Source of the DNA: Phycisphaerae bacterium
GTDB taxonomy: Bacteria > Planctomycetota > Phycisphaerae > UBA1845
NCBI GenBank assembly: GCA_029260215.1
Contig: JAJDDQ010000075.1
Location: 27,127 to 91,126, forward strand
Reading direction: 5' to 3'
DNA length: 64,000 bases
In this document: positions 3,373 through 17,711 of the stretch, piece by piece
Layout: each line of letters opens with the position of its first letter
Numbering within the stretch: the first letter of the stretch is position 1
Notes under the pieces: generated by a model
What the model saw: the letters and a program-made list of their open reading frames with translations, nothing else
What the model was told of the DNA's origin: nothing
Databases searched by the model: none
Position numbers and translations under genes: made by a program

Positions 3373-4860
3373 CTAGCCTCCGATATTGACGCCGATCGGT
3401 ATCGTTCCCGGCAACCGCTCGCCTTCTCGTCGCTCCACGATTTCACCGTGAAGCGTCAGTGCGGTTGCCCCTGCGATTCTGACGTTGATTAATCGGCCAG
3501 CGAGTCCGATTTCTCCTGAAAAAACTACGATTCGATCCGTCCGCGTGCGCCCGACAAGCTGCGACGAAATTTCCGACGAGATTTCCTCCCCCCGCGTCTG
3601 CTCCGCTTCCTGGGCTTTCATCGCCCGTTTGCTGTAGCCCTCGACCAGAATCTCCACCGTCCGCCCGATAAGTTCGCGGTTGGTGGCCAGCGAAATACGC
3701 TCCTGAACACTCAGTAACTCGATATTGCGAACCCGCTTGACCGCATCCGCCACGTCGTCGACAGCCCGCTTCTCCGCGACGGTGTTGGGCCGCTCCGAAT
3801 ACTTGAAGACAAAAATATTTTTGAAACGCGTGTCCCGGACAAGTTGAACCGTCCGGGCGAATTCCTCATCCGTCTCGCCGCAGAACCCCACGATGAAGTC
3901 GCTGGCCAGCGTCAAGCCAGGTACGAATTCCCGCGCCCGCGCCACCAATTCGACATATTCGCTCACCGAATACTGCCGGCGCATGCGTTTCAAGACCGGG
4001 TCGCTGCCGCTTTGGGCCGGCAGGTGCAGGTATTCGCAAACCTTGGGCAAATCGCGCATGGCCATCAGAATGTCGTCGCCGAAATCGCCCGGATAGCTCG
4101 TCACAAATCGGATGCGCTCGAGGCCGTTAATGTCGTTGAGGCGAGCGAGCAACTCCGAGAACGGCACGCGTTGGCCGTCGTCTTGGTTGATGTAGCTGTT
4201 GACCGTCTGACCCAGCAGCGTGATTTCGAGCGCCCCGCGATCCACGAGCATCTTCGCTTCATCGACGATCTGCCCCGGCGGGCGACTCCGCTCCGGGCCT
4301 CGGGTGAAGGGCACGACGCAAAATGTGCAGAACTTGTCGCAGCCGCGTTGCACACGCACATAGGCCTGTATCGGGTTGCCCACAATACCGGCAGCCCGGG
4401 ACAGATCGAGCGCCTCCACCGAATCGAATTCCAGCGCCCGCTCGATCGGCGTGCTCTTTCGCGACAGGCTTTGCGACAGGGCGATCGACCGCTGCCGCAG
4501 TTCGCGGGCATCCTCGATCATCGCGGGAATCTTGTTCAGCTCCCCAGGCCCACAAATGAGATCGACGTGCGGCATCTTATCGACCAAGCCGTCCGGGTCG
4601 CGCTCAGCCATACACCCGATAATACCGACGATCATGCCGGGATTGTTGAGCTTGGGTTTCTTCAAAGCACCCAATCGCGATAGAACCTTGTTCTCCGCGT
4701 GATCGCGAACGCTGCACGTGTTGATCAGCACCACGTCAGCCGTCGTCATGTCGTCGGTCAGTGCATAGTCGCCCGACGTCAACTGCCCGACGACAAGCTC
4801 GCTGTCGAGCACGTTCATCTGACAGCCCATAGTTTCCATATACAGCGTGCGCTTGCGCAT
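3373..4860 (-). CDS. miaB: tRNA-2-methylthio-N6-dimethylallyladenosine synthase (radical SAM methylthiotransferase MiaB)
   Basis: N-terminal TMGCQMN block, radical SAM CDKFCTFCVVP, and a TRAM-like C-terminus. ATG at 4858-4860 (MRKRTLYMETMGCQMN) is preferred to the TTG at 4884. Confidence 0.93.
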   Translation of the reverse strand: MRKRTLYMETMGCQMNVLDSELVVGQLTSGDYALTDDMTTADVVLINTCSVRDHAENKVLSRLGALKKPKLNNPGMIVGIIGCMAERDPDGLVDKMPHVDLICGPGELNKIPAMIEDARELRQRSIALSQSLSRKSTPIERALEFDSVEALDLSRAAGIVGNPIQAYVRVQRGCDKFCTFCVVPFTRGPERSRPPGQIVDEAKMLVDRGALEITLLGQTVNSYINQDDGQRVPFSELLARLNDINGLERIRFVTSYPGDFGDDILMAMRDLPKVCEYLHLPAQSGSDPVLKRMRRQYSVSEYVELVARAREFVPGLTLASDFIVGFCGETDEEFARTVQLVRDTRFKNIFVFKYSERPNTVAEKRAVDDVADAVKRVRNIELLSVQERISLATNRELIGRTVEILVEGYSKRAMKAQEAEQTRGEEISSEISSQLVGRTRTDRIVVFSGEIGLAGRLINVRIAGATALTLHGEIVERREGERLPGTIPIGVNIGG

Positions 4861-4939: not shown

Positions 4940-5521
4940 TCAGTCGCTCAGGCCAAGGACTTCGTCGGCGGCTTGAATCAACTCAGGCAGGGCGAATGGA
5001 TGGGGCATGGCTGCGTCAAAACCGAGCTGACGCATTTCCTCATCGCAGCCGGTCGAAAGATCCTCACAGGCGGCGATCAGCTTGACGCCTTCGCACCCGG
5101 GGATCGAGCGCATGTCCCGGCAGATGCCGCGGGCGTCAACATGCTGCGACACGGTGGCCAGGACCATAACGTCCGGTTTCCACTTCTCAACCGCGACCCC
5201 CGCCTCAAACGGCGAGGCAGCCACACGCACCTCGTAGCCTTCGTCTTCGGGCATCTGCCCGCGCAGCGCGAGCGAGCACTCGTCGAGCACGAGCACACGC
5301 GTCGGCCCCACTTCCAATCCGTTCAGCGGCATTCCGTACGTTTTCATGAAGCGCACAAGCTGATCCACAGGGATGCGCCGATCGCGACTTCCCGGAATGC
5401 GGTAGCCTTGAAGCTGCCCGCCGTCGAACCACTTGGAAACCGTGCGCGGTGCGACGCTGCATATCTTCGCAACCTGGCCTGTGGTCAAGACGTCTTTGGA
5501 TTTCAATACATGGTGCCGCAT
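4940..5521 (-). CDS. excisionase/MerR-type HTH DNA-binding protein fused to an atypical receiver-like domain
   Basis: N-terminus LTTGQVAKICSVAPRTVSKWFDGGQLQGYRIPGSRDRRI is the helix_turn_helix_17-like motif. The C-terminus is CheY-like (VLVLDE...PDVMVLAT...KLIAACED...MPHPF), but the phospho-acceptor Asp, the conserved Thr/Ser and the Lys positions read A, A and H. Confidence 0.7.
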   Translation of the reverse strand: MRHHVLKSKDVLTTGQVAKICSVAPRTVSKWFDGGQLQGYRIPGSRDRRIPVDQLVRFMKTYGMPLNGLEVGPTRVLVLDECSLALRGQMPEDEGYEVRVAASPFEAGVAVEKWKPDVMVLATVSQHVDARGICRDMRSIPGCEGVKLIAACEDLSTGCDEEMRQLGFDAAMPHPFALPELIQAADEVLGLSD

Positions 5522-5869
5522 ACTTGGCACTTTCTATATCCGCCCGGCGGCGCGCCATGCGCCATGAACCCTGAAACACGTCGGAAGCTGTCCCGGATAT
5601 CGGCTCGACCGGCGTCCTCATTCAACACGCATTCAAACACCGACCAATCACGACAGACCTCGGCGGGTGCGATAAACCCGCGTGGTCCCGTAACGCGCAC
5701 AACGTCAAAGACCCTGCACGCCTGCACCGCATCATAGGAATCGATTTTGGCGAATTCAAGACCGTCTTTTGAAACGAAACGTCCGAATCAAGACGACCCC
5801 AGGGCACGGTCCGTTTGCAAATTCCGCCGTCTTCCCGGCAGCCCGCTGAAGAGCACAGGCTTTCCGTGG

Positions 5870-5889
5870 CACCGGCTTCCAAACCGGTG
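5870..5889. repeat. REP-like hairpin, family A variant (GTGG-CACCGG-cttccaaa-CCGGTG)
   Basis: 6-bp stem with the same GTGGCACSGG head as the 10370-10392 copy. Confidence 0.5.
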
Positions 5890-5935
5890 TAAACGATGGT
5901 GTTCAACGTGACAGCGGTTTCTAAGCCAGCGAACA

Positions 5936-5954
5936 CACGGGTTGCAAACCCGTG
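5936..5954. repeat. REP-like hairpin, family A (CACGGGTT-GCA-AACCCGTG, followed by CCACAC)
   Basis: Perfect 8-bp stem. It is the inverse orientation of the 10374-10392 copy. Confidence 0.7.
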
Positions 5955-5982
5955 CCACACTTTTCAACAGCCTGCCGGAGGA

Positions 5983-7023
5983 CTACTTCGCAGGCACCTT
6001 CAGGACCATTCCGATCTTCAACGCAGCCGGATCGTCGCCGATGGCGGCTTTGTTGGCTTCGTACAAGTCCCGCCAGCGCGAACCTTCGCCGTAGTAACGC
6101 ACCGCCATTTGATACAACGTTTCGCCCTCAGCCACCGTGTGCGTGCGCGATGTGGCGACCTTGTTAGCCGCCGGCCTGCGCGTGGGCACGGGTTTCGATG
6201 CAGGCTTCGCCACGGGGGGCAGTTGAACGTCCGGCAGGTTGACGATCGTTCCGACCGCCAGCGTCGTCATGCTGCCCAATTGAGGGTTGGCATCCACGAT
6301 CGGCTTAACGTAGCGGGCGTCGCCGTAGTACCGCCGCGCGAGGTCGATAATACTGTCACCGGGCTGAACCGTGTGTGTTTCCATCGCAGCCGCCGGTGTC
6401 GATTTCGGTCGATTCGCTCCAGCCGTCCGCCCCGAAGCCCCCGTCTGCGCATCGCGCCCGGAAGCCGTCCGAGCCTGCACGCCGGTCGGCTGACTTGTCC
6501 GGGCAGCCGACCCGGAATCCGCCGCCGGTTTCGGTTTTCCATCAACCGCAAAAAGACCGGACATATTCTCTTGCTTCGTCCCCGTTTTAACGGAGGGCTG
6601 GTTCGACGGCTTCGGTTTTGGTGCGAACGACTGTGCCGGATCAGCTTGTGTCCCCGCCCGACGACGCGACGCAGCGGCTTGACGCGATGCCGGCGTATTA
6701 CTGCCCGATCGGCCCCGAATATTCTTGTCGGATTGTGCGGTTTGAGGACGCGTCCGCGGCTCCGACGCATCCGCCGACCGCTTCGCAGACCTGTTCCGCA
6801 TGGGCGAGGAAGACCGTGGCCGACTCCGCTGAGCGTCCTTTGCGACGGGCGTTTTCGCGGTCGATTCAGGCTTCGCCGCTTCGTTCTGTGCAAGTTGCAG
6901 TTGGCCTGAGTCGTCGATCAGCGGAATGTCCGCTTCGGAAGATTGCCCACCCACAAAGTACCAGCCCGCAGCCGCAATCACGACCAGCGATGCCACCAAA
7001 CCAAGCTTAACATCCGTACGCAT
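5983..7023 (-). CDS. LysM domain-containing protein (signal-anchor, Arg/Ser/Pro/Ala-rich linker, two LysM domains)
   Basis: ATG 7021-7023. N-terminal TM segment LGLVASLVVIAAAGWYF. Two LysM units: HTVQPGDSIIDLARRYYGDARYVKPIVDANP...IVNLP and HTVAEGETLYQMAVRYYGEGSRWRDLYEANK...LKVP. Confidence 0.85.
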   Translation of the reverse strand: MRTDVKLGLVASLVVIAAAGWYFVGGQSSEADIPLIDDSGQLQLAQNEAAKPESTAKTPVAKDAQRSRPRSSSPMRNRSAKRSADASEPRTRPQTAQSDKNIRGRSGSNTPASRQAAASRRRAGTQADPAQSFAPKPKPSNQPSVKTGTKQENMSGLFAVDGKPKPAADSGSAARTSQPTGVQARTASGRDAQTGASGRTAGANRPKSTPAAAMETHTVQPGDSIIDLARRYYGDARYVKPIVDANPQLGSMTTLAVGTIVNLPDVQLPPVAKPASKPVPTRRPAANKVATSRTHTVAEGETLYQMAVRYYGEGSRWRDLYEANKAAIGDDPAALKIGMVLKVPAK

Positions 7024-7382: not shown

Positions 7383-8543
7383 TTATGGCACGGGCGGGGC
7401 TGTTCCGACTGTATCCGAACGACACCACGCACGACTCAGCCAGCGTTGGAACCGTACACCCAGCGCGCAGGCCTGCCAACCGACGTGTCGGGCGGGGTAG
7501 AGTTCGCCCAGGTGACGGCTGTCCGGCAGGAGCACGCGATGGAGATAAGCCAATCGAAACCGCAGCCCCGGCGTGCAGGCCATGTCCACCGCCAACCGGG
7601 CCAGCGGACCGTGCGCGTCGCGCGGAGCCTGCCACAACGCCAACCGATCGCGCCAGCCGCATCGCGCCCGCAGCAACCGTTCGCGGACCGGATCGGGCAA
7701 AACGGGTCCGAAAATAGACTCGCAACGCACCAAGGCGAACCGCCAAGCGTGGGTCAACCGCCACGATGCCAGCGTCTCGACGACATATTCCCAATCAAGA
7801 AAATCAGCGTAACGGGCCAAAAAGCGGTGAATGTCAATCAGCCACAGCGGGCGACCGGCTCCGTGAAACGCGGCGTGACAGCACAGGTGAATCAGCATGT
7901 CCTCCGGAGACGGCGTGAACGCGCGCGATCGCCCTATCGACACAGATCGCGCCCGCCGCCACAGCGCACGCCCGGGAACGATGCGGCTGTAACGCAGCGG
8001 TCGCCACGGACGGACATGAAGGTCCACCCGCGTCCGATTGGAACCTCGGGCCAGGTATTCCCGCTCGTAGTAATAGTCCGGAAAAAAATCGTCGCAAACG
8101 TGACATTGCCCGCGATCGAAGCCAGCCTCTCGCGCGACCCTGTCGAAACGCTGCGTATCCCCCGGCGAAATCAGAATGTCGATGTCCGACATCGGACGGC
8201 ATCCGGGGTCGTCGTACACACTGTGAAGCAGCGCCGCCCCCTTGAGCAACATAATCTTCACGCCCGCAGCCTCACACGCGCGTGCCAACCGCTCGACATC
8301 CTCATGCATGCGCCGATTGCGTGACGCGACATGTGCAGCCTCACGATCGAGTTGGGCGAGAACGTCGCTCGGTGCGGGAATCCCATCGGCGCGAATGCGT
8401 TCCGCCAACAAACCGCACAACCCGCCGTCCCGCGCACGAATGCACAATTGCTCCCACGCCCGACGCTCCGACGCTCCCGGCACGACAGCGCCCGCACCCC
8501 CGGCCAGCAGCGCGGTCAACGCAGAATGCACATCCACCAGCAC
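7383..8543 (-). CDS. nucleotidyltransferase family protein (uncharacterised NTP_transf_5-like)
   Basis: Block IMLLKGAALLHSVYDDPGCRPMSDIDILISPGD, plus a later DLHVRPW. The GTG start at 8543 lies 2 nt after the upstream stop. Confidence 0.75.
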   Translation of the reverse strand: MLVDVHSALTALLAGGAGAVVPGASERRAWEQLCIRARDGGLCGLLAERIRADGIPAPSDVLAQLDREAAHVASRNRRMHEDVERLARACEAAGVKIMLLKGAALLHSVYDDPGCRPMSDIDILISPGDTQRFDRVAREAGFDRGQCHVCDDFFPDYYYEREYLARGSNRTRVDLHVRPWRPLRYSRIVPGRALWRRARSVSIGRSRAFTPSPEDMLIHLCCHAAFHGAGRPLWLIDIHRFLARYADFLDWEYVVETLASWRLTHAWRFALVRCESIFGPVLPDPVRERLLRARCGWRDRLALWQAPRDAHGPLARLAVDMACTPGLRFRLAYLHRVLLPDSRHLGELYPARHVGWQACALGVRFQRWLSRAWCRSDTVGTAPPVP

Positions 8544-8545
8544 GG

Positions 8546-9472
8546 CTACGCTCCGACCGTCCGCAGAACCAGGTCACACGTTCGACCGAGATCCCCGGAA
8601 GTAAGCTCATAGCACTCCGCCGAGCGCACCACGTCGGCCATCAGATTCACACCGGCAGACCGAAATTTGACGAAATTGAACGATTGGCGGGCCAGCCTCA
8701 GCAACGCATCCGCCCGCGAAATCGAACGAACCTCCGGCGTCGCACCAGGCCTGTATCGACAAAACATGATATGCCCCACACGGCAAGGCCGAGGCGTAGT
8801 CGCAGACGTGCTCAGAAAATCAGGCCTGATGAACCGCACCGCGCCCTTCTTGCCTTTCAGATAGACAGGCAGAGTCGCCATCTTCACGCCCGTCGCCTCC
8901 AGCGCCGAAAACGAACCCTCTTTGATGCACAGTGCTTTCGGGTAGGCTGCCAGCTCAAGGGTTTCCGGGTCGATCAGAGCGAACTCGTCCGAAAGGTAAC
9001 GCGCACCACGCTGGACCATCCCAGCCGCCAGCGTCGATTTCCCGCTCTGCGGCGCCGCAGGGAAAATCACACCAGCCCCACCGACCTCCAAAGCCGACGC
9101 ATGAACCTGATAGTACCTCGGCAGGTACAGCATGATGTGCCAGTTGATCGACCATTCCATGTGCGGAAGAATTGACCGCCGGTCCCACACCGCGAACCGC
9201 CGCGCACCGTCCGCCCAAACCTCGTAGCGTCTGCGCAAGGACTTGCCGTTGCGCGTGCGCCGGACGCGAACATCGATCGATTCCGGTGCGGGTTCCTCCA
9301 GACGCATCTCGTGGTAAAGATCACAAAACGCTCGAAACGCGCCCTCGTCATCGCTGCGAATCGTCACCGGCACAACGCCGATCCGAAAACTGGCTGTATC
9401 ACAACCGGCCCGCGACCCCCTCACCACGGCTTCCTGCCTCGACGTCACGATTTGAAGAGGCCAACCGATCAT
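8546..9472 (-). CDS. HPr kinase/phosphorylase C-terminal-domain-like kinase (HprK-related)
   Basis: P-loop block GVIFPAAPQSGKSTLAAGMVQRGARYLSDEFALID. ATG 9470-9472 overlaps the PqqD stop (ATGA). Confidence 0.8.
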   Translation of the reverse strand: MIGWPLQIVTSRQEAVVRGSRAGCDTASFRIGVVPVTIRSDDEGAFRAFCDLYHEMRLEEPAPESIDVRVRRTRNGKSLRRRYEVWADGARRFAVWDRRSILPHMEWSINWHIMLYLPRYYQVHASALEVGGAGVIFPAAPQSGKSTLAAGMVQRGARYLSDEFALIDPETLELAAYPKALCIKEGSFSALEATGVKMATLPVYLKGKKGAVRFIRPDFLSTSATTPRPCRVGHIMFCRYRPGATPEVRSISRADALLRLARQSFNFVKFRSAGVNLMADVVRSAECYELTSGDLGRTCDLVLRTVGA

Positions 9473-9786
9473 TCGTTCTTCCCAGCTACCAGCAGTCCGT
9501 TCTCAAGCAATCCCGCCAGCGTTTTCGCAACGTCTTCCGACACAGCTTCAACCGGAACGTCGTAACGCTCCGCCAGAGACCGCGCCACCGCCCCCGCGTC
9601 CGTCAGCCCGTCGCACGCATGCCAGATAAAGTAGGCCGTCCCGTTCAGGCGGTAGGTGGTGTTGATCGCTTCATCGTAAACGACAGCCTCCCCGTCCAAC
9701 TCATGCAGCACGACATCACGCCGCCGCATCGGGGTCGGGGTCGAGGTCGCGTCGAGCGGTCGGGGTGAGACACACGTGCCGTTCAT
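9469..9786 (-). CDS. PqqD-family peptide chaperone (RiPP recognition element)
   Basis: 105 aa. VVLHELDGEAVVYDEAINTTYRLNGTAYFIWHACDGLTDAGAVARSLAERYDVP...AGLLENGLL matches the PqqD/RRE pattern. ATG 9784-9786 overlaps the stop of the small upstream ORF. Confidence 0.8.
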   Translation of the reverse strand: MNGTCVSPRPLDATSTPTPMRRRDVVLHELDGEAVVYDEAINTTYRLNGTAYFIWHACDGLTDAGAVARSLAERYDVPVEAVSEDVAKTLAGLLENGLLVAGKNE

Positions 9787-10049
9787 GACGTGGGGCTCAT
9801 TCCGCTGCCCGCCAGTGCCTGCGTCGGACGAACGAGTTGTATGACCGGTGCGCTGTAGACCAGGAGCTTGCCGCCGCCTCGAAGAATCTCACGGCGCGTG
9901 GCGAATCTCTGGGAGCGCTCCGGCTCGGTTTCGCCGCATCGGCTGGTCGCCACAGAGTCATCCCGACCCGATTCCGTCGCCAAATCTCGATTCTCGTCTG
10001 CCAACAAACGCCCACCCGGAAAAAACCTATGGATTCGATCCGCCGACAC
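9783..10049 (-). CDS. small ORF, candidate precursor peptide (twin-arginine-like motif, Ser/Thr-rich C-terminal tail)
   Basis: GTG start at 10049; an alternative GTG at 9953 gives 56 aa. Stop TGA 9783-9785 overlaps the PqqD ATG. Sequence ends ..SQRFATRREILRGGGKLLVYSAPVIQLVRPTQALAGSGMSPTS. No homology evidence is available to me. Confidence 0.4.
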   Translation of the reverse strand: MSADRIHRFFPGGRLLADENRDLATESGRDDSVATSRCGETEPERSQRFATRREILRGGGKLLVYSAPVIQLVRPTQALAGSGMSPTS

Positions 10050-10373
10050 CGGCGGAGACCAATCTGTTTATCGGTCGCGTCAACGTCCGAGTTTATTCCG
10101 GATCAGTCTGGGGAACGGGTACGGCGGGACGAATCGGCCCAACCGGGGAATCAGGCGCTGAGCACGACAGCCAGAAATGTGACGATCAACACGGTCGCAC
10201 GAAACATGGCGAAACCTCCGAAAGAAGGCAGCCTCGGGCGTCCGAGACCGCACTGTCGGCATCGGCACATTGGCCTCCCGCCTGTTGCAGCCAACGGCGG
10301 GCCTTTACTTTTGCGCGTGCTACGTGCAAGGTCAGCCCGGTAAACGAACGCCAAAAATCTGTCAAAAGTGTGG

Positions 10374-10392
10374 CACGGGTTTTCAACCCGTG
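10374..10392. repeat. REP-like hairpin, family A (GTGG-CACGGGTT-TTC-AACCCGTG)
   Basis: Perfect 8-bp stem in the divergent intergenic region between the small ORF and the ClC gene. Confidence 0.7.
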
Positions 10393-10437
10393 TACTCAGC
10401 GGTCAAGAAACCGGCGTCACGTAGGACACAATCGTCT

Positions 10438-10458
10438 GCACCGGTTGAAAACCGGTGC
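10438..10458. repeat. REP-like hairpin, family A (identical to the 1653-1673 copy)
   Basis: Same 29-mer as 1652-1680. Confidence 0.7.
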
Positions 10459-10525
10459 CACACCGAGCGGTGCCACACACGATGCCCGTGCTCTTCAACG
10501 GACCGCCAATAGGGAAATCGCTGCG

Positions 10526-12634
10526 TTGAGTCCGAAAACATCCGGCTTTCTTGAACGTCTTCCCCGCCCCGCAGCCAGGTGGAGTCGCCTTTTCGGGCTG
10601 AGCGCCCTCGTCGGGCTGGCGGGCGGTCTCGCGGCTGCCGCGCTGGAATGGGGTCTGGATCACGGTTCGAGTTTCCTGATCGGCAGGTACACACACCTGG
10701 GCGGAACGGGCGTTCTGCGTTTCGACTGGGGTGTTCTCCTGCTGCCTGCCGCCGGCGGATTGCTTTCCGGTTTGATCGTCTATTGGCTTTGCCCAAAAGC
10801 CTTGGGTCACGGCACAGACGTGCTCACGCACGCATTCCACCATCAATTCGGTCGCCTGAACCTTCGAGGCCCGCTAGTCAAAGCGACGGCTGCGATCGGG
10901 GTCATCTCCTGCGGCGGGTCAGCCGGACCGGAAGGGCCTATCGCAGCACTGGGAGCGGGGTTGGGGTCAACATTCGGTCGCGTATTTGGGCTTAACGCGC
11001 GGGAACGGCGCGTCATGCTCGTTTCCGGTTGTGCAGCCGGTGTCGGCGCGATTTTCGGATGCCCGTTGGGCGGCGCATTGTTCGCGGCGGGCATCCTCTA
11101 TCGCGAACCGGAATTTGAATCCGACGCCATCGTGCCCGCGTTCGTCGCCTCCGTATTCGGCTACTCCGCCTACATGTTGTTCGCGCTGCGCGAGTTCGGA
11201 GAATTCATGCTCGACGGTGCCAATACGATGGCGTTCGATCAGCCGGCGGAACTTATTCTGTATGCCGTGCTCGGACCACTCTGCGGGCTTTTCAGCATCC
11301 TTTTTTACCTTTGCGTCCGCACGGTTGAAGACAAAATCACACCCGCGACGCACCTGCCCGTTTGGCTGACCCCCGCGATCGGAGGCTTGGCCACCGGAGC
11401 CATCGCTTGTGTTCTTCCCCAAGTGATGGACGGGCAGTATCGATTCATCCAGAATGCGATAGACGGCAATTTTGGACCCGGAATGGGCGACCTGTCTCCG
11501 TGGTCGTGGGCGAAACTGTTCGGAGCAGTCGCCGTGATGAAATGCGTGGCCACCGCATTGACCGTCGGCAGCGGCGGTTCGGGCGGCGTGCTAGGCCCGA
11601 GTCTCTTTGTCGGCGGAGCCGTCGGTGCTTTTCTCGGGGCAGCGGCTGAGGCGATCGCCCCCGGCATGGTCTCCGTCGAACTGCAAAAGGCGATGATCCC
11701 GGTGGGGATGGCCGGTGTGCTGGCAGCGTCGATGCGCATTCCGATGGCGGCGCTCGTCATGACCATTGAAATGACAGGCAGTTACGGTCTGATCGTTCCG
11801 CTAATGCTGGTTTGCTCAAGCGCCTATGTCACGGGCCGGCGTTTCGGCTTGAATTCAGCCCAGGTGCGGGGTGCGGCGGAATCGCCCGCACACGCCGCCG
11901 ACGCAGTGGTACACATCCTCGAATCGGTCCGCGTCAGCAGCCTCGTCGAACGAAACTGGCCTCTGGTGGCTGCCCCAGACGCACGCCTGCCAGAGTTGGT
12001 CAGCAAAATTTCGTTCGGCACCAGGCCCGTCTTCGCGGTCGTGGATAACGATCGCATTGTCGGACTCATCTCCGTCCCGGACATTCAGCGTATGGTGGAA
12101 GAGCCGGGCATGGCCGACATGCTCATCGCCGAAGACATGATGACCGAGAGCTTAGCCGTCGTGCATCCCGATCACGATCTCTACCAGGCTTTGGAAGTGT
12201 TCCGCCGTGAGAATCACGACGTCATGCCGGTTGTGGCGCGCGGTCGTCACGGGGCGTGGGTGGGCATGCTCTCGCGTGAAAACGTCTTCAAGACTGTCCG
12301 CGAACGCATCCGGGAAATGCAGAAAATGGTCATTCGCGAGCATGCCGGGCTGGCTGCGATGGATCAGGAAGGGCAATTGCAGCAGTTGGTGATGGGCGTA
12401 TCGCCGATGCGCACGGACCGCGTTCAGCGACTGCTGGTTCCTTTGCAGGTGATCGGCAAATCCTTGCGTGAAGCGGATTTCAGGCGGAATTTCAACGCTC
12501 AGGTAGTGGCCATCGAGCAATCGGACGGCACACTTCAATGTCCACCCGATCCCGATGCCCCGCTCTCCACAGCGCAACGGCTGGTCGCGATCGTCTGGGA
12601 AGCACCAAATGACAGCGACGAACAGTCTCAGTAA
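10526..12634 (+). CDS. ClC-family voltage-gated chloride channel/antiporter with C-terminal CBS pair and TrkA-C (RCK_C) domain
   Basis: GSAGPEGP selectivity-filter motif, GCPLGGALFA, about 10 TM segments, two CBS-like units and a TrkA-C-like tail. The start is uncertain: I chose in-frame TTG 10526 because the 9848 ORF start would run through REP hairpins and antisense to the small ORF. Confidence 0.85.
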   Translation: MSPKTSGFLERLPRPAARWSRLFGLSALVGLAGGLAAAALEWGLDHGSSFLIGRYTHLGGTGVLRFDWGVLLLPAAGGLLSGLIVYWLCPKALGHGTDVLTHAFHHQFGRLNLRGPLVKATAAIGVISCGGSAGPEGPIAALGAGLGSTFGRVFGLNARERRVMLVSGCAAGVGAIFGCPLGGALFAAGILYREPEFESDAIVPAFVASVFGYSAYMLFALREFGEFMLDGANTMAFDQPAELILYAVLGPLCGLFSILFYLCVRTVEDKITPATHLPVWLTPAIGGLATGAIACVLPQVMDGQYRFIQNAIDGNFGPGMGDLSPWSWAKLFGAVAVMKCVATALTVGSGGSGGVLGPSLFVGGAVGAFLGAAAEAIAPGMVSVELQKAMIPVGMAGVLAASMRIPMAALVMTIEMTGSYGLIVPLMLVCSSAYVTGRRFGLNSAQVRGAAESPAHAADAVVHILESVRVSSLVERNWPLVAAPDARLPELVSKISFGTRPVFAVVDNDRIVGLISVPDIQRMVEEPGMADMLIAEDMMTESLAVVHPDHDLYQALEVFRRENHDVMPVVARGRHGAWVGMLSRENVFKTVRERIREMQKMVIREHAGLAAMDQEGQLQQLVMGVSPMRTDRVQRLLVPLQVIGKSLREADFRRNFNAQVVAIEQSDGTLQCPPDPDAPLSTAQRLVAIVWEAPNDSDEQSQ

Positions 12635-14701: not shown

Positions 14702-14870
14702 ACTCACGATTTGAATTTTGAAGCACCCGTGTCGCTCTGCGGCCATGGCGAAGTGATCCTCGCTGTTGCCTCAGCCGCACACGTGGAGCATACGGTCCGA
14801 ATTGGTTACCATGCCGAGCCAGCGAGCCTTTTTCTTGCCTTGGACGGGGAAAGATCAACGGGGATTTTCG

Positions 14871-17711
14871 ATGAACGAGTTTGCGAAACGGTGTGGTTGG
14901 TGTTCGTGCCTGGTGATGCTCGCAGGCGCAATGAACCAACGTGCAGCCGCAGAAGGGGCCTGCTGTCGGCCGGCGAATTGTATCCCAGCCACAGACGCGA
15001 CCGAATGTGATGTGTTCGGCGGCGTGTTTCTCGACGGCGAGGATTGCGCAGACAGCCCCTGCGAGATCGGAGCGTGTTGTTTCGAGCTGAATTGCGGCAT
15101 GCTCGATGCCTTCAATTGTATCTCCTCCGGGAGAGCGTTCGGCGGCGCGGGCACGACCTGTCTGGACGATCCCTGCGAATCCAACATCGGTGCCTGCTGC
15201 AACAGTGGGACGTGCAGCTTCGTTTCGCCGTTACAGTGCGGGAATGAGGGTGGAACCTGGCTGGGGGCTGGTACCAATTGCCAGACCAGCCCCTGCGACA
15301 TCGGTGCCTGCTGCCAGCCGGGCGCGTGCGCCGATCTTCCCGGCTTTGAATGCATGGCTACAGGTGGTACGTTCGTGAACGGTTTCTCATGCTCAGCCGA
15401 CGCATGCGAGCAAACGCTTGGCTGCCCGGCTGACTCCCTTTTTTCGCAATCCCGCGACGCGCCCTTGTTTTTCGCCTCCTATCTTTCCGAATCCTCACAA
15501 AACGCTCAAAGATCAGACAACTACGCCAACCTCCCCGGAGCCATCGCAGTCGTGCGCTGGTTCGCCCTGAGCCTCGCTTTCGACGGGGCAGCGTTCTCAG
15601 ACTGTGTCGATTCTTCGCCGATATTCGAGATCACATTCCACGAAAACAACGCCGGCACATTGGGTGAAGTCGTGTGTTCCTACACGATCGAAGCCCAGCG
15701 AACATTCACGGGCATCCCCTATCAGACCTTTGAAGCCGTCAAATACGAAGCCATCCTCCCAACGCCCTGCGTGGCTTCCACGGGTTGGATTTCCATCGTC
15801 GGGCTGGGCGATCCCGACTGCCGCCATTACTGGATCAGCTCGACGGACGGAGATCAGGCTTCGCTTTGCAGCAACTGCCCGGGCGGCCCGAACGTGGCCG
15901 ACGATTTCAACTTCTGCCTGCTCGGCAACGCCGGCGGCGTGTTCGGCGCGTGTTGCGACCAAAATATGGGATTTTGCTCTGAAAACGTCGAAATCCAGGA
16001 TTGTCTCGACGTGGGGCAGTTTTTCGCACCTGACAAGACCTGTGCGGAACTCGATCAACCGTGCGAAATCGTCCGCGGCGCGTGCTGTTTCAACAACGGC
16101 ACGCCCTGCTCGATCGAGGTGGAGGGTGATTGCGTCGCGGCTGGCGGGAGCTGGCTGGGCCGGGATACGGTTTGTGAACAGTGTCCGGCGGTCGGGGCGT
16201 GCTGCCTCGCTCAGGACGCATGTTTTATCGGAACTGAAAATAATTGCGGCGATGCCGGATTTTCCTTCATCGGGGCGGATACCGCCTGTGAGGACTGCCC
16301 CCCTCTGCCGGATTGCCCTGCGGACACGCTGTTCGGGCAGACGGTCGATGGGCCTAACGATTTCCTCTCCGGCACATCGGAAGCGAGTGCCGGATTCGCA
16401 CGTTTCGAGGATTTCGCGGGCGTGGCTGGCCCGATTGAACACATCACATTCTGGGGCCTCGATCTGGACAACATCGAGGGCACGAATGACTTTGTGGAGT
16501 GCGTCGAAGACGATCCGCAGTTCGAAATCGCGTTTCATCGCGATGCCAACGGTGTGCCCGGTGAACAGGTGTGCTCGTATACCGTGCTGGCTGAACGCAT
16601 TCCCACGCTTTTTGACTATCTGGGTGCCAACGTGATCGAATTCCGCGCGGTCCTGCCTGCCTCCTGCGTGCTCACCCGCGGCTGGGTCAAAATCGTCGGT
16701 TTGGGTGATGAGGATTGCTGGTTCTTGTGGCTTAGTGCGGGGCTTGGCGGATCGCTCTGCGAAGGCTGCTCGGTGGAACAGCAGGACGACGATTTCGCAT
16801 TCTGCCTGAACGGACCGGTGGGCGGTGTGACCGGTGCGTGCTGCGTCGATGAGACGGGCCAATGCGAGGAAAACGTCGATATCGCCGATTGCGCGCAATC
16901 CACGCAGCGTTTTCGCCCGGGGACCGCTTGTGCCGATCTCGACCCGCCTTGCGGAATTATCCTGGGCGCGTGCTGTTTTTCCGACGCGACCTGCTCTTTG
17001 AGCGAGGAGGTAAGCTGTCAAAAATCGGGCGGCGACTGGCTGGGGGCCAATTCCATCTGCGATTCCTGCCCGTGCATCACGCCCTGTCCGTCGGTCGGTG
17101 TTGCGGAGGGTGAGCCGGTTTGTTTCGACGATTACGACGACGTTTTCAACGGCGGATGCGATGCCGAAACGGTCGGTTTTTCACCTATCGGATTCGGTCA
17201 AACCGTATGCGGTCTGAGCGGTGTGTTCGTTGTGGATTTCGATTTTGTGGGCGATTTCGACTGGTTTGAAATCGAAGTCGCCGAGCCGACGATGCTGACG
17301 TGGATTGTCGAGGCGGAATTTCCGGCTGTCGTAGGCGTTGTCGACGGTACGGCTGGTTGCGCTGGGGCCAACGTTATCACGCTTCAATCCACGGATGAGT
17401 GCGACCCGCTGGAAATTACAGTCCCGGTGAACGCGGGAACCTATTGGCTGGTGGTCGGACCTTTGGCGGCCACCGATCTGGCAGCCTGCGGCAAGCGTTA
17501 CACAGCCGTCGTTCTGAACGCCAACGCCCCGCCGGGTGACGGCAACGGGGATGGCAATGTCGATCTGTTCGATCTGGACTTGTGGAACGCCTGCCTGGCT
17601 TCCCCCGGATCGACCGCGCCGCCGGCGTGTTTGGTCTTCGATTTCGACGGCGATCAAGACGTGGATTGGGCTGATAATGCGGTGTTCCAGCAGTTGTTCG
17701 GGGGGCGATAA
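14871..17711 (+). CDS. secreted modular protein: 9 GACC Cys-rich modules, two copies of a ~165-aa unknown domain, PPC-like domain, C-terminal dockerin-like domain
   Basis: ATG 14871 gives signal peptide MNEFAKRCGWCSCLVMLAGAMNQRAAA. Repeats are described in the findings. PPC-like segment FDFVGDFDWFEIEV...TYWLVVGP. Tail GDGNGDGNVDLFDLDLW...FDFDGDQDVDWADNAVFQQLFG. Confidence 0.8.
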   Translation: MNEFAKRCGWCSCLVMLAGAMNQRAAAEGACCRPANCIPATDATECDVFGGVFLDGEDCADSPCEIGACCFELNCGMLDAFNCISSGRAFGGAGTTCLDDPCESNIGACCNSGTCSFVSPLQCGNEGGTWLGAGTNCQTSPCDIGACCQPGACADLPGFECMATGGTFVNGFSCSADACEQTLGCPADSLFSQSRDAPLFFASYLSESSQNAQRSDNYANLPGAIAVVRWFALSLAFDGAAFSDCVDSSPIFEITFHENNAGTLGEVVCSYTIEAQRTFTGIPYQTFEAVKYEAILPTPCVASTGWISIVGLGDPDCRHYWISSTDGDQASLCSNCPGGPNVADDFNFCLLGNAGGVFGACCDQNMGFCSENVEIQDCLDVGQFFAPDKTCAELDQPCEIVRGACCFNNGTPCSIEVEGDCVAAGGSWLGRDTVCEQCPAVGACCLAQDACFIGTENNCGDAGFSFIGADTACEDCPPLPDCPADTLFGQTVDGPNDFLSGTSEASAGFARFEDFAGVAGPIEHITFWGLDLDNIEGTNDFVECVEDDPQFEIAFHRDANGVPGEQVCSYTVLAERIPTLFDYLGANVIEFRAVLPASCVLTRGWVKIVGLGDEDCWFLWLSAGLGGSLCEGCSVEQQDDDFAFCLNGPVGGVTGACCVDETGQCEENVDIADCAQSTQRFRPGTACADLDPPCGIILGACCFSDATCSLSEEVSCQKSGGDWLGANSICDSCPCITPCPSVGVAEGEPVCFDDYDDVFNGGCDAETVGFSPIGFGQTVCGLSGVFVVDFDFVGDFDWFEIEVAEPTMLTWIVEAEFPAVVGVVDGTAGCAGANVITLQSTDECDPLEITVPVNAGTYWLVVGPLAATDLAACGKRYTAVVLNANAPPGDGNGDGNVDLFDLDLWNACLASPGSTAPPACLVFDFDGDQDVDWADNAVFQQLFGGR

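Follow-up and report, generated by a model that had tools for sequence, protein, structure and literature searches.

The window analysed here, a 64-kb stretch of the Phycisphaerae bacterium contig JAJDDQ010000075.1 (genome 59% GC), carries on its minus strand a small operon in which a short open reading frame (ORF), at its maximal extent 9783–10049, precedes the genes for a PqqD-family protein, an HprK-related kinase and an NTP_transf_5 enzyme. We propose, with a probability of about 0.6, that this ORF encodes the precursor of a peptide made on the ribosome and modified after translation (RiPP) which is similar to the linear polyphosphorylated peptides (LPPs) of Bacillota, and which relies on general export and on signal peptidase I. 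The most apt description of the system is that of an LPP RiPP variant from Gram-negative bacteria, which also forms a diverged branch of the HPr-rel-A cassette, hitherto an orphan. What is new is its signal-peptide-type leader, the lack of a dedicated peptidase or exporter in the cluster and a minimal core of eight residues, and new, too, is that one leader appears to resemble both a leader for RiPP recognition and an export signal of the twin-arginine kind.

The kinship with LPPs is suggested by the discrete LPP recognition protein LppB being the best match of the window PqqD protein in the PDB, by the retention of the equivalents of LppB Asn33 and Asp70, by the identical register of the leader motif, and by the serine that nine of 12 proteobacterial precursors have at core position 3. 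A role of the leader in export, and its removal by signal peptidase I, are suggested by the absence of a dedicated peptidase or exporter, by the signal-peptide-like build of the leader and by the presence of a VKOR–DsbA protein beside the Cys-knot cargos of some relatives.

The precursor gene and its leader

Read from GTG 10049 (10049–10047), the precursor has 88 amino acids and a C-terminal end ...FATRREILRGGGKLLVYSAPVIQLVRPTQALAGSGMSPTS, and its stop codon TGA (9785–9783) overlaps the ATG of the PqqD gene (9786–9784) as ATGA. Possible in-frame starts are GTG 10049, TTG 10007, 10004 and 9983, and GTG 9953; relatives with one in-frame ATG start 24–34 residues ahead of the twin-arginine pair (RR), a spacing which speaks for the three TTG codons no less than for GTG 10049 or 9953. 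Conservation is confined to the final 38 residues, TRREILRGGGKLLVYSAPVIQLVRPTQALAGSGMSPTS; the sequence upstream of the TRR is not conserved, yet relatives retain an open polar stretch of 24–38 residues there.

Homologues of the kinase were collected, almost all of them from Phycisphaerae metagenome-assembled genomes and with a top identity of 57–60%, and their alignment retrieved 80 genomic loci, where a contig scan with the single kinase sequence had given none. Among the 57 related Planctomycetota loci that hold a recognisable PqqD gene, a small hidden Markov model (HMM) for the peptide, with which every stop-to-stop ORF was scanned, detected a homologous ORF in 54, almost always ending just upstream of PqqD. 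The 38-residue part is under purifying selection, with ratios of non-synonymous to synonymous change (pN/pS) of 0.04–0.6 in pairs: 21 of the 31 differences between the window and locus L001 lie at codon position 3 (pN/pS 0.19), L001 and L002 are separated by 10 synonymous changes versus one non-synonymous change, and L006 and L007 by 18 versus three. A direct search returned two metagenomic proteins of 83 amino acids, whose likeness to the window ORF is limited to their last 40 residues and which both have an HprK-like gene, PqqD and NTP_transf_5 downstream of them. Within the 64-kb window the ORF is the sole one of its kind, scoring 64 bits against the leader profile. The homologues in 54 of 57 loci and the codon-like substitution establish the window ORF as a genuine, translated and conserved gene, tied to the trio of PqqD, kinase and NTP_transf_5 genes and possessing the motif architecture described below.

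These results bear out much of the first-pass annotation, which had placed the ORF and its ATGA overlap on the minus strand at coordinates that are all correct, and had read it as a precursor-type peptide tied to a PqqD protein, a kinase and a nucleotidyltransferase, a linkage now seen in three gene orders. It had also named third-position variation that is not codon-like as a sign against this call, and conservation of RR..L and the C-terminal Ser upstream of homologous PqqD genes as support for it; variation is codon-like in the comparison with L001, RR is invariant with the L present in 33 of 51 sequences, and a terminal Ser occurs in 28 of 37 peptides of the short-tail subtype. The twin-arginine motif, hydrophobic stretch and AxA site that it picked out in the window are conserved across the family (RR 51/51; AxA above 80%).

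The window leader includes the twin-arginine n-region T-R-R-E-I-L-R (9879–9899), 12 uncharged residues and the c-region R-P-T-Q-A-L-A, in which A-L-A (9810–9818) is the predicted −3/−1 site for type I signal peptidase and the predicted leader/core junction. Inside the hydrophobic region of this signal-like leader sits Y-S-A-P-V-I (9840–9857), a YxxPx[IV] motif of the type that binds RiPP recognition elements (RREs), its residues being Y-16, P-13 and I-11 if cleavage takes place after A-L-A. The remaining core, G-S-G-M-S-P-T-S (9786–9809), is a short Ser-rich tail whose candidate acceptors are S2 (9806–9804), S5 (9797–9795), T7 (9791–9789) and S8 (9788–9786).

Residue frequencies were taken from 51 unique planctomycete sequences anchored on the invariant Pro (position 0, 51/51). 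Ahead of it are [ST] at −17 (83%), the invariant RR at −16/−15, F at −13 (32/51), L at −12 (33/51), G at −8 (28/51), K/R at −7/−6 in most sequences and Y at −3 (41/51); after it come [IV] at +2 (48/51), [LF] at +5 (45/51), P/A at +7 (49/51), the first and second A of AxA at +10 (42/51) and +12 (46/51), S at +14 (24/51), G at +15 (20/51) and S at +17 (30/51). The RR pair is invariant in more than 150 sequences overall, and the spacing from P to AxA is the same in the 12 proteobacterial precursors. Family leaders have three parts, viz. a basic n-region with [ST]RRxFL, 12–15 uncharged residues, and a c-region that carries AxA, a Pro at −6 and, in many cases, a basic residue. A Ser is conserved 2–5 residues past AxA, at core positions 2 and 5 in planctomycetes, as a G3-S4 pattern in the type 3 subtype described below, and at core position 3 in nine of the 12 proteobacterial precursors.

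No NCBIfam or Pfam model covers the precursor family, and searches of both collections gave no family for the window peptide nor for ten relatives. Among 105 family members, the sole recurrent family-model matches are to Tat-signal models, all of them weak and sub-threshold: TIGR02811 in 23, TIGR01409 in 20, the Rieske Tat signal PF10399 in seven and PF10518 in two; the window peptide itself gave no match to these models. The leader profile, when run against PDB sequences, hit only DEAD-box helicases by chance and did not retrieve the LppA leader, and Rfam had no match within 9400–10700.

A bipartite, promoter-like motif, AACTC-N14-CCGATAA, lies at 10068–10093 on the minus strand, 19 nt upstream of GTG 10049, and looks like a promoter of the extracytoplasmic function (ECF) sigma type. 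It is the single match in the 64-kb window, versus 0.07 expected from shuffles, and of the 16 that occur in 752 kb of sequence from related loci, 14 fall within 260 nt upstream of the peptide RR codons; an extended form, (G)TCAACTC – about 14 nt – CCGATAA, precedes the precursor in some 30 planctomycete loci (L001–L028, L059 and others). A transcript starting from this location would be predicted to hold the whole ORF, even from GTG 10049, which addresses a refuting condition named in the first-pass annotation, a 5′ end downstream of 9950. A scan for sigma-70 promoters found none upstream of the ORF, and terminator-like sites in the region are at chance level. The intergenic stretch upstream of the precursor also contains a small ORF (10151–10354, minus strand) with a strongly hydrophobic C-terminus, MFRATVLIVTFLAVVLSA, and in L006 and L007, about 400 nt upstream of PqqD, there are small ORFs with several hydrophobic stretches followed by a His-rich C-terminus; these share no detectable similarity with that of the window and all may be chance ORFs.

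The operon is flanked by a divergent ClC channel gene and has MiaB, helix-turn-helix (HTH)/receiver, LysM and histidine kinase genes as neighbours. LysM, HTH/receiver, MiaB and ClC were considered as parts of the system and rejected, being conserved in the closest relatives only.

Partner proteins and related systems

The PqqD-family protein (9469–9786, minus strand; PF05402, 59.8 bits) is a discrete RRE or peptide chaperone. Its best solved-structure match is LppB (9x8z_B, E 2e-4), compared with 0.015 for the lasso RRE TfuB1. In an alignment of 30 planctomycete PqqD sequences (A2), the equivalent of LppB Asn33 is Asn in 29 and that of Asp70 is Asp in 24 and His in four. In L026–L028, a leader lineage with Lys in place of the Tyr (TALK[TA][VAT]P), the RRE residues that correspond to Asp70 and Asn33 are Cys and Asp, respectively, so that leader and RRE may co-vary there; this is anecdotal, coming from a single lineage, and in another lineage with the Tyr-to-Lys change (L019/L036) Asp and Asn are retained.

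Next in the operon is an HprK-related P-loop kinase of the HprK_rel_A/ScmC type (8546–9472, minus strand; TIGR04352, 178.2 bits). Its homologues carry PF27840, their alignment shows His124, Lys145, Asp162 and the P-loop to be invariant, and its AlphaFold2 model (pLDDT 90.8) matches PEPCK and HprK/P structures in fold; the three invariant residues agree with a portion of the His-Lys-Asp-Asp motif that has been described in lasso kinases. The third partner is an enzyme of the NTP_transf_5 nucleotidyltransferase family (7383–8543, minus strand; PF14907, 186 bits), the gene for which accompanies that of the kinase in almost every related locus. Two homologues, P0045 (486 aa) and P0054 (473 aa), are natural fusions with a PqqD domain N-terminal to the HprK-related kinase, consistent with an RRE that serves the kinase. 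In L053, an HprK-like ORF (4974–6230) reads in frame and without a stop into a Cys-rich RR-leader precursor, which could be a real enzyme–substrate fusion, an internal start or an assembly error. Neither a SipW-like peptidase in the window operon and its flanks, nor an MsbA-like ABC exporter adjoining the cluster in the window, was found, and both were likewise absent from L002, L033, L047, L073, L083, L084 and L086.

The first-pass annotation knew of no described RiPP class with this layout; a closely analogous one is that of the LPPs, which were described by Popov et al. (Nat Commun 2026; PMC13381572) from the lppA-K-B-S-D-N cluster of Paenibacillus alginolyticus and which these authors considered to be confined to Bacillota. 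That cluster encodes LppB as its discrete RRE, LppK as HprK-like kinase, the NTP transferase LppN, which is uncharacterised and was inactive in a heterologous host, the SipW-type signal peptidase LppS, acting as leader peptidase, and the MsbA-like exporter LppD (PMC13381572). LPP precursors of 35–200 amino acids combine a conserved N-terminus, YxxPxVLxHQxIxFETxxS, with variable C-termini; in the crystal structure 9x8z, Y-16 and P-13 of the LppA leader, which has V-11 in the same motif, bind LppB, whose Asn33 fixes the kink at P-13 and whose Asp70 hydrogen-bonds Y-16 (PMC13381572). LppA is cut after T-1 with the help of the RRE, LppK polyphosphorylates core Ser3, and LPP clusters often lie within capsule loci (PMC13381572).

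Both systems lack a lasso cyclase and combine an HprK-like kinase with an NTP transferase and a discrete RRE of PqqD type, although the window NTP_transf_5 enzyme is set beside LppN by description and not by sequence. Each has precursors with a conserved N-terminus and a highly variable C-terminus (about 45–217 amino acids here, compared with 35–200 in LPPs), an acceptor Ser a few residues into the core, predicted in our case, as well as removal of the leader at a site of signal-peptidase type, again predicted here, and relatives located in polysaccharide loci; if AxA is −3/−1, the Y-16/P-13/[IV]-11 register is identical. They differ in that the window cluster and its annotated relatives lack counterparts of LppS and LppD, and in that the leaders here have an invariant twin-arginine n-region, an h-region and AxA, whereas the LxHQxIxFET part is absent. 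The hosts are Planctomycetota and Proteobacteria rather than Bacillota, and the window core is of eight residues with Gly at position 3 and S2 and S5 nearby.

The HPr-rel-A system, which pairs TIGR04352 and TIGR04353 with PF14907, matches the window trio protein for protein and in gene order. No curated model of an HPr-rel-A substrate was found, and literature searches, which also covered twin-arginine RiPP leaders and PqqD in PEP-CTERM settings, returned no paper on the cassette of HprK-related kinase, PqqD and PF14907. The canonical, fully annotated locus L073 passes both curated cut-offs (200 bits for TIGR04352 and 35 bits for TIGR04353) at 369 and 65 bits, and has an RR-leader protein (4073–4726) directly upstream of PqqD, in the position of the window ORF. 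In contrast, the window kinase (178.2 bits) and PqqD (28.3 bits) both fall under these cut-offs, and while canonical loci, of which L073 is the one annotated in full, lie within XrtA/PEP-CTERM exopolysaccharide clusters and have a cargo of 60–217 aa, the window operon stands alone with a cargo of eight residues.

Phosphorylated lasso peptides such as paeninodin and pseudomycoidin are another point of comparison, as they too combine a linear, leader-bearing precursor and a PqqD-family RRE with an HprK-like kinase and a nucleotidyltransferase-like enzyme, and have [Y/W]xxP in the leader and a C-terminal Ser, the latter shared here by the short-tail subtype. In lasso clusters, the kinases PadeK, ThcoK, SyanK and PsmK place a phosphate on the Ser at the C-terminus of the linear precursor, to which PsmN attaches a hexose (PMC9266682). 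The lasso register, in contrast, is Y-17/P-14/T-2 rather than Y-16/P-13, and reading the window peptide itself as a lasso peptide was rejected, since genes for a B2 protease or an asparagine-synthetase-like macrolactam cyclase are lacking from the operon and from its flanks, and GSGMSPTS has no acidic residue to serve as the Asp/Glu acceptor of lasso cores at position 7–9.

With signal peptides of the twin-arginine translocation (Tat) pathway the leaders share S/T-R-R-x-F-L, an h-region of moderate hydrophobicity and a c-region that has AxA and a basic residue, and the predicted binding of the signal peptide by a cytoplasmic protein during maturation of the cargo is reminiscent of proofreading by proteins of the TorD/DmsD/NapD type. 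The differences are that the cargo is a few residues and not a cofactor enzyme, that the binder is an RRE winged helix and not of TorD or NapD type, and that matches to Tat models are sub-threshold.

Subtypes and gene orders across the family

Family members share the leader and differ in what follows it. In type 1, with 37 unique sequences including that of the window, the peptide ends 5–9 residues past AxA, and the length of this tail is tightly constrained, the C-terminus being found at P+17, +18, +20 or +21; the last residue is Ser in 28. Type 2, with 14 unique sequences (L025, L031–L033, L035, L037, L042–L044, L047, L051–L053 and L067; e.g. L047 2759–3046 and L033 2352–2804), has instead a six-Cys, knottin-like domain, its first Cys lying at P+17 to P+21 and at +17 to +19 in 13 of the 14. 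This cargo is of 30–60 residues with the arrangement C..C..CC..C..C, and its matches to knottin and conotoxin patterns are weak and sub-threshold. Type 2 loci encode an NTP_transf_5–SET fusion, the precursor, a VKOR–DsbA fusion, PqqD and the kinase; VKOR–DsbA is a membrane protein that forms disulfides outside the cytoplasm.

A search of 5.8 billion proteins with the leader profile retrieved 103 further small proteins of 45–76 amino acids, here termed type 3, all of which are annotated as ‘hypothetical’, have no Pfam domains and share the RR-to-P spacing. Many of them read M-x6-8-[ST]RRx[FI][VI]K[KR]AAYVAPVILTLxAxPxFAxxGS, with some 80 textbook leaders among P0121–P0208, and have low-complexity tails that are either Lys/Asp/Pro-rich or Ser-rich (Ser/Trp-rich). 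Three members checked at random (L083 6001–6156, L084 6001–6156 and L086 6001–6138) lie between PqqD and an HprK-like (ScmC) gene with NTP_transf_5 adjacent, and these contigs contain the same trio in another gene order. L083 also has two ScmC-like genes and adjoining genes for sulfate activation (PAPS reductase, CysN/C-like).

In 12 proteobacterial loci of the HPr-rel-A cassette (L057, L060, L061, L063, L064, L066, L068, L072, L073, L076, L079 and L080), a protein of 57–216 amino acids, counted from the RR motif, is encoded directly upstream of PqqD and has the leader K/RRxF[IV]KG...P[VL][IV]LTL....AxA. Several of these precursors share a C-terminal S-C-x-[TS]-S-L motif, and no curated family covers them. 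Long-tailed members of the family end in K, D, G, R and other residues, not in Ser. Judged from the sequences, the peptides are the cognate substrates of the PqqD/kinase/NTP_transf_5 trio, since the leader is conserved, the cargo is free to vary and the linkage is kept over three gene orders and at least two phyla.

Elsewhere in the window, a plus-strand ORF of 981 amino acids (14766–17711) is Cys-rich and internally repeated, with a signal-like N-terminus and a dockerin/EF-hand-like segment, GDGNGDGNVDLFDLD, at its C-terminus.

A proposed maturation route, its alternatives and what it would mean

In the mechanism that we propose, the genes for the precursor, the PqqD-family RRE, the HprK-related kinase and the NTP_transf_5 enzyme would be transcribed as one unit, and in the cytoplasm the RRE would bind the leader through Y-16-x-x-P-13-x-I-11, as an added beta-strand, and bring the core, short and rich in Ser, to the kinase, which would then phosphorylate or polyphosphorylate one Ser just past the junction, most likely S2 or S5 and possibly S8. 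The NTP_transf_5 enzyme may next decorate the phosphate further. The modified peptide would probably be exported via the general Tat (or Sec) pathway, and housekeeping signal peptidase I would cut after A-L-A, freeing the modified octapeptide GSGMSPTS outside the cytoplasm. As YxxP lies inside the hydrophobic region, one may speculate that RRE binding masks the signal until modification is complete, in the manner of Tat proofreading chaperones. An export signal and an RRE leader had been posed as alternatives in the first-pass annotation; with YxxPx[IV] embedded in the hydrophobic region of the leader, the two are compatible.

A more far-reaching version, to which we give somewhat less than even odds, holds that the leader is both a RiPP leader and a functional twin-arginine signal peptide, with the RRE acting as a Tat-proofreading chaperone that covers the hydrophobic region until the kinase and nucleotidyltransferase have modified a Ser beside the cleavage site, and with Tat and signal peptidase I replacing the exporter and peptidase, so that a (poly)phospho- or glyco-phospho-octapeptide would be released into the periplasm. 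In other lineages the same module would then deliver cystine-knot, charged-tail and 200-aa cargos, including the HPr-rel-A substrate of exopolysaccharide loci.

Several features weigh against the route outlined above. The kinase and PqqD score under the NCBIfam HPr-rel-A cut-offs, the third core residue in the window is Gly and not Ser, the hydrophobic stretch is short (12 residues) with a central Pro, there are extra basic residues between RR and the h-region, and individual matches to Tat-signal models are all sub-threshold. Eight residues are also a questionable load for Tat or Sec. Furthermore, the leaders of LPPs are no signal peptides, so an unlinked SipW-like peptidase could be encoded elsewhere in a genome of which 64 kb were seen.

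The point at which the kinase acts is one place where the evidence divides. The first-pass annotation had favoured the terminal Ser, and the 28 of 37 type 1 peptides that end in Ser support it, as do the tightly constrained tail length and the lasso systems, where HprK-like kinases modify a C-terminal Ser and PsmN adds a hexose there (PMC9266682). If so, the kinase would act on S8 (9788–9786) and the nucleotidyltransferase would extend the phosphate, with the other steps as proposed above. We consider this rather unlikely: the closest system, LPP, uses core Ser3 and not the C-terminus, long-tailed members lack a terminal Ser yet keep a Ser 2–5 residues past AxA, and in the shortest tails both candidates fall on one position. 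By analogy, S2 or S5 is at least as likely an acceptor as S8 in the window peptide. A second division concerns the leader, which could serve for recognition by the RRE and enzymes only, RR and AxA contacting the kinase, the nucleotidyltransferase or an unlinked peptidase, and its likeness to a signal being convergent or vestigial. LPP and lasso leaders share YxxP yet are no signal peptides, the LPP leader is cut by a signal-peptidase-like enzyme with the help of the RRE, and the short h-region with its central Pro, the sub-threshold Tat matches and the PF10518 hits in just two of 105 members would all fit such a role. Against it are an RR pair that never varies in over 150 sequences, drawn from three gene orders and at least two phyla, the type 3 leaders, which are textbook examples with S-R-R-x-F-V-K, 15 uncharged residues and AxA, the linkage of Cys-rich cargos to the periplasm-facing VKOR–DsbA, and the lack of an exporter or peptidase in any annotated cluster, and for these reasons we hold that a purely recognitional leader is unlikely.

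Far less probable is that the ORF encodes an ordinary small secreted protein beside a trio which acts on some other substrate, e.g. a polysaccharide intermediate. The location of the canonical systems within XrtA/PEP-CTERM exopolysaccharide loci and the capsule-locus context of LPPs (PMC13381572) lend it some colour, as does the putative nature of the nucleotidyltransferase chemistry; but PqqD-family proteins are peptide-binding RREs, the leader has an RRE motif in the LPP register, the contact residues are kept, the linkage of peptide and trio holds over three gene orders, and in one lineage with Y to K in the leader the Asp70 and Asn33 equivalents are replaced as well. A chance open frame in the GC-rich, divergent intergenic region might be suspected from the overlapping ORFs in other frames and from GC3 and codon-position statistics that are uninformative on 88 codons, but this idea is refuted, to the point of being negligible, by the homologues in 54 of 57 loci, by pN/pS ratios well under 1 and by independent gene calls in public data.

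If the LPP-like reading with general export is right, the peptides described here supply the missing substrate for a conserved cassette of PqqD, HprK-related kinase A and PF14907, which NCBI curators have named a system, and they extend the LPP-type RiPPs beyond Bacillota to Planctomycetota, Proteobacteria and unassigned metagenomic lineages, with more than 150 precursor sequences found, all of them annotated as ‘hypothetical’. They also suggest a new logic of RiPP maturation, whereby the leader serves as a signal for general secretion as well. One such leader, followed by cargo ranging from five residues to a 217-aa protein, may amount to a portable ‘modify-then-export’ tag made up of the leader and the junction Ser, which would be of interest both for peptide engineering and for the study of capsule- or biofilm-linked peptides.

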